The position numbers and the translations under genes are program-made. Below, in pieces: positions 7,506 through 18,470 of a DNA stretch of 64,000 bases (its first letter is position 1; the number at the start of each line of letters is the position of its first letter). Origin of the DNA: Scenedesmus sp. PABB004 (Eukaryota); NCBI GenBank assembly GCA_014905635.1, contig JABVCE010000011.1:186001-250000 (forward strand), read 5' to 3'. The notes under the pieces are model-generated. The model searched no databases. It was not told where the DNA came from and saw only the letters and a program-made list of their open reading frames with translations.

Positions 7506-10500
7506 ATGCGCGCGGGCGCGCTGCGCCGCGGCGCGGCCCCGGCGCGGGCGCTCGCCCCGCGCGCGCTCAAAACGCCAGCAGCGCGGCGCGGGCGCGCCGT
7601 GGCGGTGCGGCTGAGCCACTACAGCGCTGCCTTCTACGACCTGCAGGCGCAGCGCCCGCTCGACGCGCTGGACTCGCTGGCGCCGCAGCAGCTCGCGCAT
7701 CTCGTGCACGGTGCGCGGCCCCCAGGCGGCCAGGACGGCCCCACCGGCCGCCGGGACGGCGGGCCCTGCTGTCCCCGCGCCCGCAGCGCGCTGCGCAGCT
7801 GCGACGCGGCGCCGCGGCGCCGCGGCGCGCCAGCAACACGTAGCGCTGCTGCCGCGTCAGCGGGCGCGCCGCCGCCGCCCGCCGCCGCGCTGCGCGCGCC
7901 CCGGACTCTGGCGCCCCGCCTGCCAATCCCTCCCGCCCCGCCCTCCCGCCCTCCCTCCCCGCGGCAGGCGCGGCGGCGGGCGGCCTGAGCGCGAGCGGCG
8001 CGCTCTACCTGGCCACGTTTTGCGCGCTCTCGGTCACGCTCGGGGCGCTGTTCTACAGCCTCACCTCCGTGCTCAACGAGTACTTTGACCTACAGGCCCG
8101 CCTCACCAGCAGGCCGCAGGTGCGGGGGCGGGGCCGGAGAGGCGCAGCGCGCGCGCGGCGCGGCGACGCGACGCGACGCGCCCGGCCGCGCCCGACGCCC
8201 GGCCGCGCCCGACGCCCGGACGCGCCCGCCCGCCCGCGCCGCGCAGGAGCGGCCGACGCTGCACGGCGTCGACGTGTCGCGCAGCGCGATGTTCACGGGC
8301 AGCGCGCGCGTGCGCGCCGCCGCCGACTTTGCGGCGGCCGCGCACGCGGGGCAGCGCCGCAAGACGGGCGAGCCGTACGTGCGGCACTGCATCGAGACCG
8401 CGCTCATCGTGGAGGCCAACCTCCCGCACTGGCGCCACGACAGCAGGTGCGGCGACGCCGCGGCGCGCGCGCCCGCGCCCGCGCCCGCGCCCCGCGCCGC
8501 GGCGGTGTCTTGCCGCGGCGGCGGCATCTGCCCACCGCGCCTGCCCCGCGCGCGCGCGTGCGCTGCCAGGCACGAGGACGCTGTCATTGCCGCGCTGCTG
8601 CACGACACGCTCGACGACACGCCCACCACGCCCGAGGCGATCGGCGCCGCATACGGCCCCGCCGTCGCGGCGATGGTGGTCAAGGTCTCCAAGCTCTCCC
8701 AGGTCAACCAGATGCTGCGCCGCGACAAGCGCAAGGTGCGTTTGCCCCGCCGCCGCCGCGCGCCCCGCGCCGCGCTGCCCGCACGCCCCCGCCGCCGCGC
8801 GCGCGCCGCGCCGCGCACCACGCCGCGCCGCGCCGCCCGCCGCGCCGCCGCGGCGTCGCACCGCACCGCGCCGCGCGTCCCGCTCCGCAGGGCGTCGTGT
8901 CTGGCGACCCGGGGTTCTGGGCGAGCCAGTGGGGCCGGCTGAAGCGCATGATGTTTGAGGCGGTCGTGGAGGAGCCGCTGGTCATCCTTGTCAAGCTCGC
9001 CGACCGCCTGCACAACATGCGCACCGTGTACGCGCTGCCGCCGGCGAAGCAGCAGGCGGTCGCGGAGGAGACGCTCGCGGTGTGGTGCTCCATGGCCGCG
9101 TCGCTCGGCTGGCACGGCCTCAAGGCGCGGCGCGCGGCGCGGCCCGGCGCGGCGCGGCGCGCCCCCGCGCGGCGCGGCGCAGCGCGCCCGCCCACGCTGC
9201 CCCGCCCCCGCGCTGCCCCGCCCCCGCGCTGCCGCGTCGCACAGAGTGAGATGGAGGACCTGTGCTTTGCCGTGGTGCAGCCGGCGCGGTACTGCGCGCT
9301 TCGCCAGGAGCTGGACAAGCTCTGGTCGTCGCCGCCGCCGCCGCGCAGCCGGCGCCGGGTGCGCGCGACACGGCGCGCCGCGCAGCTCGCGGCGCTGGCG
9401 CAGGCGCAGGCCGCGCTGGACGAGGCACGCGCGGAGGCGCGCGCGGAGCCCGGCGGCGCGCTGGGGCGCGGCCTGCGCGGCCTGCGCGCCCGGCTGTGGG
9501 GCCCGCCGCCGGCGCGCGGCGGCGGCGGCGGCGCGCAGCAGCAGCAGCTGGACGCGGGCCAGCTGCAGGCGGTCGCCGAGCGCGCCCAGGACGGCAGCGC
9601 GGTCGCTGCCGCGGGCAGCGCCGGCAGCCAGCAGCAGGCGCTGCAGGCGCAGGCGCAGCAGCAGCAGCTGCTGCAGCAGCAGCCGCAGCAGCAGGCGGCG
9701 GGGCTCAACCTGCTGTCGCGCGCGTGGCAGTCGGCCGCCGCGCCGCTGCTGCCGGCGCCGCCCGAGCCGGACGGCACGGACCCGCAGCGGCCCGGCGGCG
9801 GCGAGTGGGGCGTGACGGACGCCGCGCTCAGCCTGCGCGCGCTCCTGGGCGCCGGCCGGGCGCCGGGCGCCGCGGACGGCGGCGTCGCCGCCGCGGCGGC
9901 GGGCGGCGCGCAGCCGGCGCCGGCGCCGCCCGGCGGCGCCGCCGCGCTGACCGCGCAGCAGCAGCAGCTCCGCGCTGTGCTGTCCACGGTCGTGCCGTTT
10001 GACGCGGTCAGCCTGCGGGGCAGCCGCGGGTTGACCTGGTCGGCGCGGCAGGGGCTGTCGGTGCTCGAGGAGGCCGCGGGGCGCCTCTACACCGAGCTCG
10101 CCGTCGGCAGCTTCAGCTGCGGCCTCGGCGTGGAGATCCAGGGCCGGCTCAAGAGCCTGCGCAGCGTGAACGCCAAGATGGAGCGCAAGGCCTGCAGCGT
10201 CGAGGTGCGCGGCCCGCGCCGGCGCCGCGCCCGCCGACGCCGCGGCCCAGCGCGCGCCGCCGCGGCCCGCCGACGCCGCGCGCGCCCCGCCCCCGCCCCC
10301 GCCCCCGCCCCCGCCCGGGCGCCGCCGCCGCCGCGCCTCTGCAGGAGGTGTACGACGCGCGCGCGCTGCGCGTGGTGGTCGACGACGCCGGCGGCACGCG
10401 GCTGGCCGACGCGGTGCAGTGCTGCTACCGCCTGGTCGGCGCGGTGCACAAGCTCTGGTACCCGATACACGGCGAGTTCGATGACTATGTGGCCAACCCC

Positions 10501-12659
10501 AAGCCCAGCGGCTACCAGGCGCTGCACACCGCGGTGTGGGGCCCCGGCGGCGCGGCGCTGGAGGTGCAGATCAAGACGAGCGGCATGCACGAGCACGCCG
10601 AGTACGGCGGCGCCGCGCACTGGGCGTACAAGGAGGTGCTGTGGGGCTCGCCGCCCGCGGCCGCGGCCGCGGTCAACGCGCTCGAGGGCGCGCCGCTCGG
10701 CGCGCCCGGCGGCGCCGCGGGCGGCGCGCCGGGGCGCTACAGCCGGCAGGCGGAGGCGGGCGGCGCCGCGTCGGCGGCGGCCGTGGAGGCGCTGCCGACA
10801 CTGCTGTTCTCGTTCGACGACGACGGCAGGCTGCTCAGCAGCAGCCAGCTCGCGGCCGCCGGCGGCGGCGGCCTCGGCGGCGGGCTGCTGGAGCTGGCGG
10901 AGCCGGCGGCGCCTGGCGGCGCAGGCGGCGAGCGCGGCGGGCGCGTGCTGGTGGCCGCGGCGCCGGCCGGCGCCGCGGTGGCCACTGCAGCGCGCGCCGC
11001 GGCGGCCGCGCCCGGGGCGCAGCAGGCGCCGGCGCAGGCCGGCGGCGAGGCGCCGCTGCGGGCGCGCATCGCGGCGCTCAGCCAGCAGGCGGCGGCGGCG
11101 GCGGCGCCAGAGGCGCAGCCGGCCGGCGGGGCGTGGCCACGCTGCAGCGGCCCGCCGGCCGCGGCGGCGGCGGCGGCGGCGACGGCCCTGGCGCGCGGCC
11201 GGGCGGCTGGGGCGCGCCGCCGCCGGCGCCGCGCCCGTGCCGCCCGCGTACGTCGGCCAGCCCGTGCTGCGCATCTCGGGCCGCCTGCGCTACGGCGCCG
11301 TGCTCGCCGTGCTGCCCCGCGCCGGCGGCGGCCTCGCCGCGCCGCTGCCGCCGCTCGGCGGCGCCGCGGCCGCGCCGCCGCCGCCGCCCGCCGACGGGTG
11401 CAGCCTGCTGTGCGTCATAATGAGCGGCGGGACCAACCCGGAGCACCCCTGGCGCATGCCTGACTATGGCTTCTATGCCCAGCTGCTCGGCTACGCGGGC
11501 GCCGCGGGCTGGACGGCGCCGGGGCAGGGCGATTGGCATGCGCGGCTCGAGGAGTACGAGTGGTGCCGCGACGGCCGGTGCGGCGGCGCGGCGGACCCGG
11601 CGCGGCGCGGCGCGCGCCCCCGCCGCGCGGCGCAGCCGCTGCGCGCCGCCGCCCACGCCCGCCCCGCCGCGCCCGCGCGTCGCGCCAGGTGGCACCGCCG
11701 CGACCACATGGGCTACCTGCACCCCCACACCACGCTCACGCTGCTGGAGGGCTATGAGCGCGACGCGGCCGAGGCGGCCGCGCGCGGCAGCGGCGCCGAG
11801 GCGGCCGCGCCCGCGCCGGCGCCCGCGCCCGCCGCGCCCCTCGCGGCGGCGCGGGAGGCCCGCGCGGGCGGGGGCGAGCCGCCGGCGGGCCTCGCCGGCG
11901 GCCCCGTGAGTGCGGCGGGCGCGCTGCTCGCGAGCGTCCGCGCTCGCGGCGCGCGCGACGCCAGCAGCCTGCTGCACAGCTGGGCGACGGGCGGCGCGCC
12001 GCGCGACGCCGGCGGCGCGGCCGCCGGCGCGGAGGAGGGCGGCGGCGACGCGGGCGGGCCCCCCGGCGCGCGCCGACGCGGCGCCCGCCGAGGGCGCCGC
12101 CGCGGGCGCCGCCGCCGGCCTGGGCGCCGGCTCCGACTGGGCCGCGACGGCGGCCAAGGCTGCGCAGCTGCGCAGCGTGATCGAGTGGGGCATGGAGGCC
12201 TATGGCGTGCCCACCGCGGCGGAGCAGGGCGGCGACGTCTCGGTCGTCATCTGGCCAGGTGCGCCGCCGCCGCCGCCGCCGCCGCACCGCTCCGCTGCCT
12301 GCGTGTGCGCAGCTGGGGCGAGCGCGCGCCGCGCCGCGCCGACCCCGCGCTGCCGCGCGCCGCCGCGCGCCGCAGGCGGCGTGATTGAGGACGTGCCGCG
12401 CGGCACCACCGCCGGCCAGATCCTGCGCGAGCGCGGTGTGCTGGCCATCCTCGACGCCCCCGACGGCGCCGCACCCGCCGCCGCCGCGGCCGCGGCCTCC
12501 GCCGGCGGCGGCGCGGAGCGCGCGGAGGGCGGCGGCGACGCGTCGGCGCCGGGGCGGCTGGTCAACGTGGTCAACGTGAACAACCGCCTGGTCAGCGAGG
12601 ACACCGTGCTCAGCGACGGCGACCTGGTGATCCTGGCGCGCGAGCGCATCAAGATATGA
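7506..12659 (+). CDS. RSH: RelA/SpoT homolog ((p)ppGpp synthetase/hydrolase), probably plastid-targeted, with TGS-like C-terminus
   Basis: HD-domain motifs AHAGQRRKTGEPYVRH, AALLHDTLDD and VKLADRLHNMRT. Synthetase motifs GRLKSLRS, YDARALRVVV, EFDDYVANPKPSGYQALHT and EVQIKT..MH..AEYGGAAHWAYKE. C-terminus VNVNNRLV..DTVLSDGD. Confidence 0.93.
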
Positions 12660-13310
12660 GCGCGCCGCAGCCAGCCGGCGCCGGCGCCGCGCCGCGCACG
12701 CCCGCCGGCTGGGGGTGCCGCGCCGCGCCGCGCCGCGCCGGCCGGGTCTGTACCATCAGCGTTCCGTGTGCTGAAGTTCACCGCGCGTTTGGTCTAGGCC
12801 AGCTGTTGATGCCGCCGGCGGCGCGCCGCCCGGGGGCAATGTGCACTGTTTGGGTCGCGAGCGTGCGCGGTGTGCCGCTGGACGGCGGCAGGGGACGGCG
12901 TGACGTGGGGCGGCCCGGCGCGGCCGAGCGCCGCGCTGCCGCCCGCACAGATGTCCGGGCTCCCGATGCGCGTGGTGGGACGAGTGTGCGAGAGCGTGTG
13001 TGCGCGCGGCGGCGGTCGGTGGGCTCCGCGCGATTCTTTGCCGCCGCGCCGGCGCGCGCGTGGGCCGGCGGCGCTGCGCGCGCCGCGGGCGGCGGCGCGC
13101 AGGATGGCGATGTGAGCTGGCGGCTGCTGGCGGCGGGCCATGGTAACCAACAGGGGCGCGGCAGGGAGGGGCGTGTACCACCAGCGGCGGCGGTTTGGAT
13201 TGGTGGATCGATAGGCCGTGTGACGGCGCTGCGTCGGCGATGCCAGCCCGCGGCGGCGGGAGTTGTGTGCGGCTGCAGCGCGTGCACGTGGCGGCGGGTA
13301 ACGTCAGGCT

Positions 13311-13450
13311 GATGCGACAGGGACCGCGCCGTGTGGGCAGCTGCGGCCGCTGCCGCCGGCGCGCCCCGCTGCCGCCGGCGCGGTCAACGCTGCGTCACCG
13401 GCGGCGTGCGCGGCGGGGCAGCGCCTGGCGGCAGCGCGCGTGGCGCACGT
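13311..13450 (+). repeat. Left arm of a diverged inverted repeat (partner at 16616-16749)
   Basis: Exact reverse-complement blocks in the same order: 13323-13335/16715-16727, 13358-13381/16679-16702 (24 bp), 13386-13394/16667-16675, 13397-13412/16651-16666. Confidence 0.75.
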
Positions 13451-13793
13451 GCGCCGGCCAGCCGGGACCGGCGGCGGCCGCGTGGGCAGGGGTCGCGGGG
13501 GCCGCTGGCGCGACAGCGATCACTGGCGCCATCACCCTGCCTGCCCCGCCAGCACGGCGCGCCGCCCGCCCCGCCGGCCCGGGGGCGGCCGCCCGGGTCT
13601 GAGCACCGCATTTTCCCGCTGCGCGACGCGCGCTCGTATAGGTGTGTTGAACCGTTGACCGACAGTGCACGCGCGCGGTCCCAGCTTGTTACGATGGCTT
13701 GCGCTACACAACCACAACATCCAGGCGGCGCCCAACAAGCCAAGCGTGGCCCTGGGCCTGCACCGCTCTCTCAACCCCAGCCCCGGAACCTGC

Positions 13794-14257
13794 TTACGAC
13801 GCGGCCGCCGGCTTGGCGCTGGCAGCCGACGAGCCCACGGCGGCGGGCGCCCCGCCGCCGCCCTTGGCACCGCCGCCGCCGCCACCCGCCGCCGCTGCCG
13901 CCACGCTGCTGCCCGCGCCCCCGGCGGCCGAGGCCGCCGCGGCGCTGCTGCCCGCGGCCGCAGCGCTGCGGCTTCCCACGGCTGCGGCCGCCGCGGCCGC
14001 GGCGGCGGCTGCCGCGGCTGCAGCGACCGAGTTCGCGGCCGGCAGCGTGATGGCCTTCGCGGCGAGGATGCCCTGGCTGTTGTTGGTCGCCGCCGCCATG
14101 GCGGGCGCGGCGGGCGCGGCGGCAAAACTGTGCAGGCAGTTGGCGCCAGGCGCGAGCCGCACAATCTGCGGCAGCATCACGCCCGTCGGCAGCATGCCGC
14201 CCGCCGCCGCGGCGGCGCGCTGGCTCGCAGCCAGGGCCGCGAGCTGCACCATCGACA

Positions 14258-14308
<51 letters not shown>

Positions 14309-14494
14309 TGCCGCCCGCGCTGCCGCGCGCGCTGCCGCCCGCCGCCGCGGCCGCGGCCGCGGCCGTGGCGGCCAGCTGTGCTGCCTGCAGCTGCTGCAGC
14401 TGCGCCAGCGCGCTCGCCGGCAGCACGTATGTGAGGGGGACACCCATCGGCAGCATGACCTGCTGCGGCTGCCATGCTGCCGAGGCATCACCTG
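13794..14494 (-). other. Orphan terminal exon encoding a Gln/Ala/Gly-rich low-complexity protein tail
   Basis: Open frame ..GDASAAWQPQQVMLPMGVPLTYVLPASALAQLQQLQ..AKPAAAS ending in TAA at 13794, followed by UTR-like, more AT-rich sequence; no upstream exons recognisable. Confidence 0.5.
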
Positions 14495-14717
14495 CTCTGT
14501 TTGCGGGGCGCGCGTGGAGAAGCTGCGGGGCATCTATGGTCTGGTGCAGTGCCCCGGGTGCACGGTCGTCGCGCCGCGCGATGACAACGCGGCGCGCAAC
14601 ATCTGCGCGCTCACGCTGCACGAGTTGCTGCGCGGCGGCCGCGGCACGGCGGGCGGCGCGCGCCTCGCCGGCGCGTTCCGGCAGGCGGCCGCCGCCGCGG
14701 TGGACCCCCCGGCGTGA
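14481..14717 (+). mobile_element. C-terminal fragment of a TnpB/Fanzor-type RNA-guided nuclease (Zn ribbon plus RuvC-III), 5'-truncated
   Basis: TCSVCG-x-RGIYGLVQCPGC-x5-RDDNAARNI (RDDNAARNI at 14577-14603), stop at 14715-14717. This matches the CxxC..CxxC..RDxNAAxNI signature; no RuvC-I/II is visible upstream. Confidence 0.8.
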
Positions 14718-14744
14718 GCGGCGTGTGCGGTGCGCTGCGCTCTC

Positions 14745-14962
14745 CGTCCTGGGCAGGACGTTAAAAGGCCTCTTGCTGTTGTGTTGTGTTGCCAGGTTAG
14801 GTCAGGCGTGTGCGCGTGCGTTTCTCGCCTTGTCACCCGTTCCGGGTGGGGGGGACCCCTCGCGGGGCACCGACCTGCGGGCCGGTCCCAAACCGTTATG
14901 CCTCGCGCCGCTGTGGCCTGTTTCAGGCGGCCGGCGATCAGAGGATGCCCATGGTCGGTGTT
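14745..14962 (+). ncRNA. Candidate omega-RNA scaffold / element right end downstream of the Fanzor-like fragment
   Basis: Hairpins: CGTCCT/AGGACG (14745-14760), CACCCG/CGGGTG (14834-14848), CCCC/GGGG (14856-14867). A multibranch domain is closed by CACCGACC/GGTCGGTG (14868-14875/14953-14960) and encloses GGGC/GCCC, CGGT/ACCG, CCTC/GAGG, CGCCG/CGGCG and GCCTG/CAGGC. Confidence 0.6.
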
Positions 14963-15075
14963 GGCGGCGGCGGCGCGCGCGCGCGGTGGTGGCAGCGCCG
15001 CGCACGCGCGCCGCGCGCCCGCGGCGCCGGGGCGCCCCCGGGGCGCCCCGGCAGCCCCCATCCCCCCAGCCGCCG

Positions 15076-16114
15076 GTGTTGAGACCACCGGCCGGCGCTC
15101 CCACGGCGGTAGCGAGGCCGGGGAGCACGCCCCCCGGGGCGTCCATCGTCGCGTAGCCGCACTACGCGCTGGCGCAGCGGGGCATCCCCACGCACTATCG
15201 CGTCTCGCGCACCTACCAGACGCAGGGCGCGCCCTGCCGCCGGTGCGCCGGGGGCAGGACTGCGCGGGCAACGCGCTGCGGGCGCGGCGGTCCCCCGGCG
15301 CCGTCGCCGCGGTGCCGACGTCGCCGCTGCCCGCCGTCGCCGCTGCCCGCTGTCCAACTGCAGCCTGTTCAGGGACATGTGGGACAGGATGGCGAACTGG
15401 GCGCGCTGCAGCTACGAATGGAGCCGCGTCGCGTCGCTGCTGGCGCCCGCGGGGCGCCGCGCGCCGCAGCTCCACGAGCGCGCCTGGCGCGTGCGCGCGC
15501 AGGGGCCGGACGACATTGCCGCGCCGCGCACGAGATGCGCGCCATGAGCGGCGACACCACGCTGCCGCGCTGGCTGCACGACGAGGGCTGGGCGCAGCGC
15601 GGACACGCGCACTTGACGCATTCGGCTGTACCTCGAGAGCGGGGCGCACGGCGCCTTCATGCAGCTGCGCCGCGCTGAGTCCGGCCAGGTGCGCAGCTGC
15701 CCGGCAGCGGCGCTGCCGCCGCCGCCGGCGCGCCGGGCGGCCGCCCGCGCCGGCCGTGCTGCGACTTCTGAGCGCCCCAATGCTGCTGCCCGACAGGCGA
15801 CCCTGGTGCACGTGCCGTCGGGCGGCATGCTGCTGATGTGGGAGCATGGGCTGGAGCACGCGGCGTGGGTGCGGCCGGGCGAGGTGCGCCTCATGGCGCG
15901 CCTGCAGATGGGCTTCGGGCCCACGCTCGACTACTGCCGCGGCGGCTGCGGCATCCCCTCGTGCGAGGACATGCCGCACCGCGCGCGGGCGCAGCCGCCG
16001 CTGCTCGTGCCGGCCGCCGCGGTGGAGCTCGACCGCGCGGCCCCCAGCTGCGACGGCCACGGCGTCCCCTTCGCCGGTGCCGCGCCGGCCACCAGCAGCG
16101 GTGCGCTGGTGTGA
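15076..16114 (+). pseudogene. Decayed spliced gene with 2OG-Fe(II) dioxygenase-like C-terminal motifs
   Basis: Phase-compatible introns 15243-15372 and 15689-15796. Pieces read WLHDEG / IRLYLESGAHGAF / VHVPSGGMLLMWEHGLEHAAWVRPGEVRLMAR. In-frame TAG at 15154-15156 and frameshifts near 15520 and 15618. Confidence 0.45.
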
Positions 16115-16615
16115 CCGCCGCCGTCGCAGCAGCCGCCGCTCGGCGCCGCGCCGGTGGTCGCGCCCTGGCCGCTGGGCCAGGGCTGGGCGGGCTCGGCGGC
16201 TGCCGCGGAGCTGTGGCGCAGCGGCGCCGCCGCCGGCGGCTTTGGCGGGGCCGGGGGCGGCCGTGCCGCGAGCGTGCTGCGCGCCAACACGGTGCTCGAG
16301 TGGAATGAAGATTACATCGAGTGAGCCTGCTGCACTTGTGCGCGCACCGCGCGCGCACTGCGCACCGCGCGCGCACGAGCCCCGCCGTGGCTGCCGGCGC
16401 GCGCTCGGCGCCGCGCCGGCAGTCGCGATCGGCGCCGCGGCGGCAGTCGCGCTCGGCAGGCTGGGGGCGTGTGGTGTATGATGTGGCGGACGCTGCGCTG
16501 GCCGGGCGTGCGCCAGCGTGTCATTCAGTCGGGCGGCGTGTGCAGCACGAGCACCCGCCGCCGCCGCACCGGCCAGCCGGCGCTGATCGATGACGCAGAG
16601 CTCTTTTGCTGCGCG

Positions 16616-16749
16616 CCGGGCGCCACGCGCGCCGCCGGGCGCCGCCCCAGCGCGCACGCCGCCGGTCGCAGCGTTCAAGCGCCGGCGGCAGCGGGGCGCG
16701 CCCGCGGCCGCCCACACACGGCGCGGTTGCTGCCGCGACGCATCGCATC
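16616..16749 (-). repeat. Right arm of the diverged inverted repeat (partner at 13311-13450)
   Basis: Reverse complement aligns in blocks to 13311-13450. Confidence 0.75.
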
Positions 16750-16935
16750 GCCGCGCGTCGGATTGGCGTTGCGAGCAAAGTGTCAGGGCGGTTCTGCCGG
16801 CGCGGTTCAGTCGGATCTCCTGCCCGCCCCGTCGCGCTTAGCCCCCCCGCTGCGCCCCGCCGCAATTGCCACTCCCGATCGCCCCACGCCCCCATCGGCC
16901 ATCCGCCCCCGGTGCGCCCCGCGCCGCCCGCCAAG

Positions 16936-18470
16936 ATGCAGACCCTCCAGTCCACCCGCGCGACCAACGGCGCCAAGTGGACGATGGCCAAGAAGTTCAG
17001 CCTCCCCAGCTTCGGCGGCGGCAAGGCGGCGCCCGCCAAGTCGGCGAGCCGTAAGGTGGCCAAGGCCGCGCCCGCGCCCGTGAAGAAGGCCGGCACCGTC
17101 TCCACCGGCACCCGCAAGGGCGGCGTGGGCTACAGGAAGTACCAGGGCGACGCGCTCTGGCTCCCCAACACCACCCGCCCGGGCTGGCTCGACGGCAGCC
17201 TCCCCGGCGACCGTGGCTTCGACCCGCTCGGCCTCTCCCGCCCCAGCGACTTCGTGCAGATCGGCGTCGACGAGAACGACATCAACGCGTCCAAGAACTT
17301 CAAGGCCGGCGTGCAGGGCACCTTCGCGGCCGCGCCCGATGAGGTGTCCGAGACCCGCCTCGCGCCCTACAGCGAGGTCTTCGGCCTGCAGCGCTTCCGC
17401 GAGTGCGAGCTGATCCACGGCCGCTGGGCGATGCTCGCGTGCCTGGGCTGCATCGTCGCCGAGGGCACCACCGGCGTGTCCTGGTGCGCGCGCGCCGCCG
17501 CTGCTGCGCCGCCCCGCGGGCCGCCGCGGCGCGCCCGCGCGCCGCCGCGGCCCCAGGACCCCCTGCGGCGCACCCCCAGCGCCGCGGCGGCCGCCTCGGC
17601 GCCGCCACGGCGCGATCGCGCGCCGGCGCGCGGCCCGATCTGGCGCCGCCGCGCCGCGCGCGCGCCCGGATCTGGGGCGCGCCCCGCGCCCGCAGCGCGC
17701 GCCGCCGCGCGCGCGCCGCCGCACGCCGACCCCTCCGCCCGCCCGCCCTCCCGCCCGCGTGCAGGGTGGAGGCCGGCAAGGTCGAGCTCGACGGCGCGAC
17801 GTACGCCGGCTTTGCGCTGCCGTTCTCCATCACCCAGCTGGTCTGGATCGAGGCCATCCTCGTCGGCGGCGCCGAGGTGTACCGCAACACCGAGCTCAAC
17901 CCCGAGAAGCGCCTCTACCCCGGTGAGCCACGCCCGCCGCGCCCGCCGCGCCGCGCGCCGCGCCCGCCGCCGCGCGACCCGCGCGACCCGCCAGCCGGCG
18001 GGCTGCCGCCGGGCCGTCCCTCTCTCTCTCTCCGGCGCGCGCGCGCGATCGCGACGCCCGCCGCCGCCGCCGCTCACCCCGCGCGCCGCCTCTCTCCCGC
18101 GCGCCCGCCCGCCCGCCCTGGTCGCCAGGCGGCTTCTTCGACCCCCTGGGCCTCGCCGGCGGCGACGACGCGGACAAGGTGTTCCGCCTCAAGACCGCTG
18201 AGATCAAGCACGGCCGCCTCGCAATGGTCGGCTTCCTGGGTGAGACGGCGCACCGCACCGCACCGCCGCGCTGCAGCACAGCGCGGCGCCCGAGACGGCA
18301 GCCTCTGGGCCGCGCGGCAGGCGCGCGCGCTGCCGGCCGGGCCGGGCCGGGCCGCCGCCTGACCGCGCCCCCCGTGCCCCCGCCGCGCGCGCGCAGGCTA
18401 CGGCGTGCAGGCGCTGTCGACCGGCGAGGGCGCCCTCGGCTCCCTGGCCAAGTTTGGCGACTCCTTCTAA
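16936..18470 (+). CDS. LHCB4: Minor PSII antenna protein CP29, 4 exons
   Basis: [89 protein letters not shown]; stop TAA at 18468-18470. Confidence 0.97.

Follow-up and report, generated by a model that had tools for sequence, protein, structure and literature searches.

Within a 64-kb stretch of the genome of Scenedesmus sp. PABB004 (contig JABVCE010000011.1, positions 186,001 to 250,000; hereafter the window), positions 14485-15132 very probably represent a 5'-truncated, inactive 3'-end copy of a low-copy mobile element encoding an RNA-guided endonuclease of the Fanzor/TnpB family. Relatives of Cas12 are known as Fanzor in eukaryotes and as TnpB in prokaryotes, and their small size gives them practical interest for genome editing. 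What survives of the nuclease gene is its last 76 codons with the stop, followed by non-coding 3' DNA of about 415 nt (Table 1). The fragment alone is a dead relic from which no activity is expected, and it is of value because it points to a Fanzor family adapted to high GC content and to the candidate guide-RNA region at its 3' end. It indicates that a family of Fanzor/TnpB type, which differs between related strains, has recently been copied in a Scenedesmus-like genome of extremely high GC content, and the coding tail together with the 3' region provides a probe for complete copies and their guide RNA.

The coding remnant comprises the second half of a TNB zinc-ribbon domain, a RuvC-III motif and a low-complexity tail; the plus-strand frame from 14481 reads RGITCSVCGARVEKLRGIYGLVQCPGCTVVAPRDDNAARNICALTLHELLRGG…VDPPA and then stops. 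An earlier note on this DNA had picked out TCSVCG…RDDNAARNI at the end of an otherwise spurious open reading frame (ORF), had interpreted it as a eukaryotic TnpB/Fanzor remnant with a zinc ribbon and RuvC-III, and had proposed a profile search of the peptide. In that search Pfam PF07282 (Cas12f1-like_TNB, formerly OrfB_Zn_ribbon) matched the 78-aa piece at E 1e-6 and 29.2 bits, above the curated cut-off of 26.3 bits, with remnant residues 4-41 aligned against profile positions 30-60 of 60. The top NCBIfam matches were IS607_TnpB (23.8 bits), IS200_TnpB (21.1 bits, only 2.7 bits lower), guided_TnpB and Cas12f2. All of these sit at the C-terminal ends of the profiles, and the scores fall far short of the 100-450 bits that the families require, since the piece covers no more than the last ~50 residues.

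Solved structures were searched with P0002, a 271-aa 'hypothetical protein' of Scenedesmus sp. PABB004 whose residues 40-115 are 100% identical to the 76-residue remnant. The top PDB match is an OB-fold chain, aligned to an OB domain that P0002 also carries. For the Fanzor-like part of P0002 the best matches are the mimivirus TnpB-like protein L79 (9b0l_P, E 1.2e-3) and LaTranC, after which come Cas12 and TnpB chains mixed with chains of OB-fold SSB and of ribosomal zinc-ribbon proteins. The zinc ribbon of the remnant aligns to those of 9b0l_P and LaTranC in this comparison, and also to that of P0007, a 304-aa TnpB with OrfB_IS605 and TNB domains, which has 43% identity over 67 residues in an alignment that starts with the helix preceding the zinc finger and takes in the two Cys pairs as well as RDDNAA. 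The motif RDDNAARNI correspondingly aligns to RDENAAKNI in 9b0l_P and to RDDNAAENL in P0007. A feature search of the protein Atlas gave 30 matches, all of which carry PF07282, and in the Atlas structure search (template-modelling score by query 0.66-0.70) this family was present on all members in four of the five cluster rows listed and on 29% in the fifth. Because Pfam, NCBIfam, solved chains and Atlas features and structure agree, we identify the peptide as the C-terminal zinc ribbon and RuvC-III segment of a TnpB/Fanzor-family protein.

The internal geometry of the remnant is that of this superfamily. CPGC-x5-RDDNAARNI spans 14550-14603, with RD falling within the 5-50 residues after the zinc finger that are demanded by the motif D-x(125,275)-[TS][TS]-x-x-C4 zinc finger-x(5,50)-RD, as set out by Bao & Jurka 2013 (PMC3627910). 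The presumed catalytic aspartate, placed by the D-x-N-A-A register, would be encoded by the GAT codon at 14580-14582. The [TS][TS]-x-x element before the zinc finger is absent from the window copy, which starts I-T-C with the preceding T-S lost at the breakpoint, and is kept in sister copies as HRTS-IT-C (P0002 and a freshwater-metagenome contig, X1 record 3). The pattern CxxC…CxxC…RDxN occurs once in the six frames of the window and in none of 50 mononucleotide shuffles. GC content at the three codon positions of the remnant is 0.75/0.62/0.93 overall and 0.65/0.51/0.90 in its core, compared with 0.62/0.56/0.98 in a chlorophyll a/b-binding (LHC) protein gene nearby.

The remnant forms the end of a 352-codon stop-to-stop frame at 13659-14717 (+), of which the part upstream is the antisense of a minus-strand coding exon; this plus-strand frame is open because it lies antisense to a real exon in 80% GC DNA. 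The description of the ORF as otherwise spurious was therefore fair, and the motif at its end was borne out by translation, Pfam score, shuffles, GC periodicity and identity with P0002. The window itself is green-algal nuclear DNA. This is evident because GC content is high (77-85% across all 64 kb, ~80% overall) and because two genes adjoin the fragment: a RelA/SpoT-HD gene (HD_4 and RelA_SpoT domains) at 7844-12659 (+) on its 5' side, and the intron-containing LHC gene at 16936-18400 (+) downstream, both with a third-position GC of 0.93-0.98. With the four family tests in agreement and host DNA of this kind, the reading as a eukaryotic TnpB/Fanzor remnant stands.

A confounder of any such assignment is that open frames in high-GC DNA tend to be long and to encode much Cys, Arg and Ala, and the zinc-ribbon part also matches weakly to zinc-ribbon families in Pfam that are unrelated to TnpB. 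Nevertheless, we consider chance resemblance or bacterial contamination of the assembly to be ruled out for practical purposes: the Pfam match exceeds its gathering score, the shuffles do not generate the motif, there are other copies that are identical or longer, eukaryotic genes lie on either side, and codon usage is biased just as in host genes.

Table 1. Positions within the 64-kb window of the remnant, its parts and the features around it
Feature	Positions	Strand	Basis
Coding remnant, last 76 codons of a Fanzor/TnpB-type gene	14485-14714 (ITC… from 14487)	+	Translation, Pfam, identity with P0002
C4 zinc ribbon CSVC-x15-CPGC	14493-14561 (Cys pairs 14493-14504 and 14550-14561)	+	Translation, motif scan, alignment
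RuvC-III motif RDDNAARNI	14577-14603	+	Motif scan, alignment
TGA stop of the remnant	14715-14717	+	Translation
Breakpoint of homology, the 5' truncation point	14481-14488		Starts of metagenome contig matches
3' non-coding part of the repeat, ~415 nt (candidate right end and omegaRNA region)	14718-15132	+	Metagenome contigs
Block around the remnant, 3,167 nt	13654-16820		Contig joints 13653→16821, with 26 other letters between
Probable coding exon of a Gln/Ala/Gly-rich protein unrelated to the remnant	13794-14459 (limits estimated)	-	Minus-strand ORF 13794-14801 and codon-position GC

The extent of the copy was defined by contigs from three freshwater-metagenome runs (X1, X2 and X3) aligned to positions 12000-17000; these runs share only 0.06-0.07 of the words of this region, and X1 and X3 belong to one study. 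Contig matches start exactly at 14485 (X2 record 14, 412 nt with 2 differences) or at 14488 (X1 record 3 and X3 record 17). In X1 record 3, the 20 other letters directly before 14488 encode DEHRTS, as in residues 33-39 of P0002, and the window has unrelated sequence at this place. Contigs of all three runs cover 14680-15132 at 95-100% identity and stop at ~15130-15132 (X1 records 5-7, X3 records 18-22). We therefore read the window copy as the truncated tail of a low-copy repeat, since the contigs match from 14485/14488 to ~15132 and one of them extends upstream differently.

Nothing of the missing part of the nuclease was detected nearby. The remnant has no start codon, RuvC-I, RuvC-II or WED/REC part, and none of the 22 ORFs around it (11.9-16.8 kb) matched PF01385 (OrfB_IS605) or any TnpB-related Pfam family. 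The motifs [VIL]GxG[ND][WF] and E[HYF][RK]TS..C were absent from every frame of the window, and the 1.8 kb between the end of the RelA/SpoT gene (12659) and 14485 has no plus-strand coding periodicity. Because there is no RuvC-I/II upstream and homology to other copies ends at 14485-14488, the window copy cannot be active as a nuclease, in line with what the earlier note had concluded for it. The flanking ORFs also contain no TnpA or serine recombinase domain, an absence that says little as the remnant is a fragment. Truncation may have arisen through incomplete or one-ended transposition, or through later deletion or rearrangement; Bao & Jurka 2013 credit one-ended Helitron2-type transposition for 5'-truncated Fanzor1 copies with a shared 3' end (PMC3627910).

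Alternatively, an intact Fanzor gene could be split by introns here, with the piece as a single exon and the others, RuvC-I/II included, at other places in the window. Bao & Jurka 2013 give 5-10 exons for the Fanzor1 genes of green algae (PMC3627910), the piece has splice-like flanks (AG|GC at 14483-14486 and GC|GTGAGC at 14712-14719), and its intact frame would suit such an exon. This is very unlikely, however, since X1 record 3 joins DEHRTS-coding DNA directly to the piece and there is therefore no intron at that point in other copies. Moreover, 5-mers of P0002 residues 29-39 (VAAVLMDEHRTS…) are found upstream only as scattered low-complexity words and never in the right place, neither the TnpB-family search of the neighbouring ORFs nor the motif scan of the window frames gave a match, and the interval 12659-14485 contains a minus-strand exon. 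We give as little credence to an assembly artefact, in which a wrong join within a repeat has produced the break at 14485 and the real locus is longer or complete. Such an error would be favoured by a multi-copy element in an 80% GC genome rich in low-complexity GCC runs, and the break does coincide exactly with a repeat boundary. Against this, independent metagenome contigs run collinear with the outer flanks on both sides of the 3.17-kb block around the remnant (joint 13653→16821), so that the region is not grossly chimeric, and the sister copy P0002 is incomplete too.

Several observations weigh against a truncated mobile element itself. The right end at ~15132 is placed by the stops of short contigs and a fall in depth, and could be due to graph branching. 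Neither target-site duplications (TSDs) nor terminal repeats were found: the regions 14380-14500 and 14880-15320 share only words of at most 7-8 nt, in GC-rich DNA. The bases before 14485 (…GCCGAG) are not T-rich. Finally, a full-length copy was not recovered from any of the collections searched, and thus the complete parent element is one that we infer. This parent would have been mobile and complete, with an RNA-guided endonuclease most likely of the Fanzor1 type.

The repeated nature of the fragment is reflected in contig depth. In X1 the repeat contigs have per-contig depths of 10-32 versus 6.45 for the single-copy flank contig, and in X3 they have depths of 6.7-10 versus 3.3. As these depths are 2-5 times those of the flank, the data suggest that a related alga holds roughly 2-5 copies of the repeat. 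Within the window, repeats are confined to low complexity of the GCC type, and no second copy of 14485-15132 was found. The copies also vary in their coding part. In contigs of X1 (depth 31) and X3 (depth 7.3), 9 letters take the place of 14578-14679; this is an in-frame loss of 31 codons (frame read by eye) that takes out RDDNAARNI from an otherwise near-identical copy. The undeleted form is also present in X1, with a depth of 18.1 at 14582, where a T>C change converts GAT to GAC and is synonymous in the Asp codon.

The guide-RNA scaffold and the right end of known TnpB/Fanzor elements are located in the 3' region. The region 14718-15132 is a candidate for both of these, by analogy with an omegaRNA at a transposon right end: a conserved non-coding 3' region of ~415 nt has been copied along with the coding tail. 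We regard this region as non-coding because it lacks codon periodicity (GC of 0.76/0.75/0.75 at the three positions). Its last ~200 nt are palindrome-rich, with z-scores down to -3.7 on the plus strand and -3.5 on the minus strand, and the fold of the whole of 14600-15135 has a z-score of only -2.3. The region has no Rfam match, a search at E <= 10 having produced five weak unrelated matches, all far under gathering scores, and its fold z-scores are modest and differ little between the strands.

P0002 was the sole database protein found to hold the remnant piece. Its TNB domain match (E 3.5e-10, residues 21-78) reaches over profile positions 10-60, and it also bears an unrelated Ssb-like OB-fold domain (E 1.2e-36, residues 136-260, close to Arabidopsis 1wjj). 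Residues 1-39 (…AAVLMDEHRTS) and 116-271 were not found in the window by tblastn or as exact 5-mers, and hence P0002 derives from another locus. There, the Fanzor tail, residues 1-115 of the NCBI gene model, lies just upstream of the OB-fold host gene in the same orientation, and the GT at 14714-14715 of the window (…GC|GTGAGC) corresponds to the point where the P0002 model splices onward. This gene model is probably a chimeric prediction, with the element inserted just upstream of a host gene, because the OB protein plainly starts at an internal MATEKK when judged against its Arabidopsis homologue 1wjj.

The arrangement of P0002 raises the possibility that the fragment has been exapted, either within the transcript of the adjoining host gene, where it would be spliced in as a 5' exon or leader, or as a small zinc-ribbon protein, and is kept for a function other than that of a nuclease. 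In support of this, P0002 joins the same piece to the downstream Ssb-like OB-fold gene in the same orientation, and a plus-strand gene (~15157-16324) follows the piece in the window as well; the frame is open with a high third-position GC, two loci are 100% identical, and the in-frame deletion variant preserves the frame. We nevertheless consider exaptation unlikely. The P0002 model is apparently a prediction artefact, the piece begins mid-domain and without a start codon, no database protein other than P0002 was found with it, and recent copying explains the identity equally well. The window copy is recent and its parent gene was adapted to the 80% GC genome, because the frame is intact, the codon bias is host-like and identity is 100% at two loci. 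The host-like codon GC and the intact, identical frame speak against the gene having newly arrived from a virus or bacterium of low GC content. A giant-virus origin was also considered and finds no support here, given codon usage like that of the host and the lack of viral genes in the vicinity.

With only about 50-80 residues informative for clade placement, we tentatively assign the parent element to Fanzor1 as the likelier of the types considered, because the sister copies carry a DE[HYF]RTS-ITC motif. Comparison with the supplementary table of Saito et al. 2023 (supplement of PMC10432273) was made by motif look-up and by eye only. In this table DEHRT occurs in two rows, both green-algal Fanzor1 (FZ1; Auxenochlorella and Tetrabaena), all 6 rows with DEYRTS and all 5 with RTSITC are FZ1, and none of the displayed TnpB or Fanzor2 (FZ2) rows has DE[HYF]RTS ahead of the zinc finger. 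By eye, the stretch GGxIxGPxP…DEHRTS of P0002 resembles the Auxenochlorella FZ1 row. Other features point away from Fanzor1. All four rows with RDDNAA are prokaryotic TnpB, the solved structure with the best match is that of a viral protein of Fanzor2 type (9b0l_P), and the PDB search with P0002 returned no Fanzor1 chain at E <= 10. The NCBIfam ranking likewise favours TnpB/Fanzor2. The zinc-finger motif TCSVCG is present in 23 rows, and among the 14 shown 13 are unbranched TnpB and one is FZ2.

These conflicting signals are mirrored in the likeness of the remnant to known systems. With the Fanzor1 elements of Chlorophyceae (CRe-1/2/3 of C. reinhardtii and the FZ1 rows of Tetrabaena, Auxenochlorella and Raphidocelis) it shares a green-algal host and the signature [TS][TS]-x-x-C4 zinc finger-x5-RD, with MDEHRTS-ITC carried by the sister copies. 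The pattern of copies is also alike: a truncated tail, a longer but still partial copy (at the P0002 locus), variants with deletions, and a 3' end in common. The spacing between the Cys pairs is different, with 15 residues here and long inserts in the two green-algal FZ1 rows inspected. Helitron2-borne Fanzor1 elements (CRe-1/2/3) are described as having a common 3' terminus with a hairpin/ATIR, and TSDs of 7-19 bp after a T-rich tetranucleotide. Neither such TSDs nor a Helitron2-type end was found here, and the 3' ~200 nt are palindrome-rich. Conversely, prokaryotic TnpB (IS200/IS605 and IS607) and Fanzor2 (mimivirus L79, 9b0l) are like the remnant in their compact zinc ribbon and C-x2-C-x5-RD spacing. 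TnpB also shares the canonical RDDNAA, with IS607_TnpB and IS200_TnpB as the best profiles and 9b0l_P as the best sequence match to the Fanzor-like part. The eukaryotic host and host-like codon usage distinguish the remnant from both.

The presence of Fanzors in chlorophytes has been known since 2013, and the fragment is an ordinary relic of this family. Fanzor1 families of Volvox, Chlamydomonas and Chlorella are listed by Bao & Jurka 2013 (PMC3627910), and a 2025 Auxenochlorella preprint describes diverse Fanzors that are sporadic in green algae (PMC12633428). The table of Saito et al. lists FZ1 in Raphidocelis (Sphaeropleales) and has no Scenedesmus or Tetradesmus row (PMC10432273). In our literature search, no paper was found that links Fanzors to Scenedesmaceae.

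Searches for complete copies covered protein, viral and metagenomic collections. A phmmer search with the 56-aa core against 1.84 billion representatives led to four matches at E <= 0.001, and none of the three examined was a TnpB: P0003 and P0004 are long proteins with repeats whose scores accumulate from many weak matches, and P0005 had no BLASTP alignment. Word-indexed searching for longer proteins with the 81-aa piece returned P0002 only, among 747 candidates. With the 115-aa N-terminus of P0002, the near-match version gave none of 148 candidates at E <= 1, and the version for longer proteins returned P0002 and P0007 among 3,973 candidates. Pattern matches in viral contigs (23) and in metagenome contigs (596) were not confirmed in any case, and an exact 24-nt pattern from the 3' region had 0 matches in the latter. 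The expectation in the earlier note that longer homologous copies exist was thus upheld in part, with P0002 as a longer copy and no full-length copy carrying RuvC-I/II in the collections searched. Its broader proposal, that this genome 'hosts or hosted' the family, is supported by the longer partial copy in Scenedesmus and by the near-identical copies in freshwater metagenomes.

A further possibility, which we rate as less likely than not, is that this alga or its close freshwater relatives carry a recently active Fanzor1-like family fully adapted to a nuclear genome of ~80% GC. Complete copies would then reside elsewhere, the ~415-nt 3' region would supply the guide RNA and right end, tails upstream of host genes might become leaders or exons, and the variant lacking RuvC-III might be a nuclease-dead derivative. 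Truncated tails lie just upstream of host genes at both of the two loci seen.

The surroundings of the remnant differ between related strains. Metagenome contigs (821 nt with a side of 134 in X1 and 518 nt with a side of 126 in X3, from one study) join 13653 directly to 16821, and therefore a related alga is without the 3,167-nt block. This block holds the minus-strand exon, the remnant and the plus-strand gene at ~15157-16324, and a search of the block's ends revealed neither terminal repeats nor TSDs.

The minus-strand exon has a third-position GC of 0.92-0.97 in its frame over 14020-14469 and closes with a TAA stop at 13794-13796. Pfam yielded only a weak GRP match to it (E 0.021), and exons further upstream in this Gln/Ala/Gly-rich gene were not located. 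The Fanzor tail would fall in an intron or the 5' region of this gene. On the plus strand, 15157-16324 contains several coding segments with a third-position GC of 0.92-0.98 that resemble an intron-split gene and include …FRDMWDRMANW…, …LPRWLHDEGW… and …LVHVPSGGMLLMWEHGLEHAAWV…. The putative gene had no match in Pfam or the PDB. One of its ORFs, 15776-16111 (+), likewise had no PDB sequence match, and its weak leads in the Atlas were actinobacterial hypothetical proteins, HalD and DUF1826. Our guess is that the product of this gene may have a 2-oxoglutarate/Fe oxygenase-like fold.

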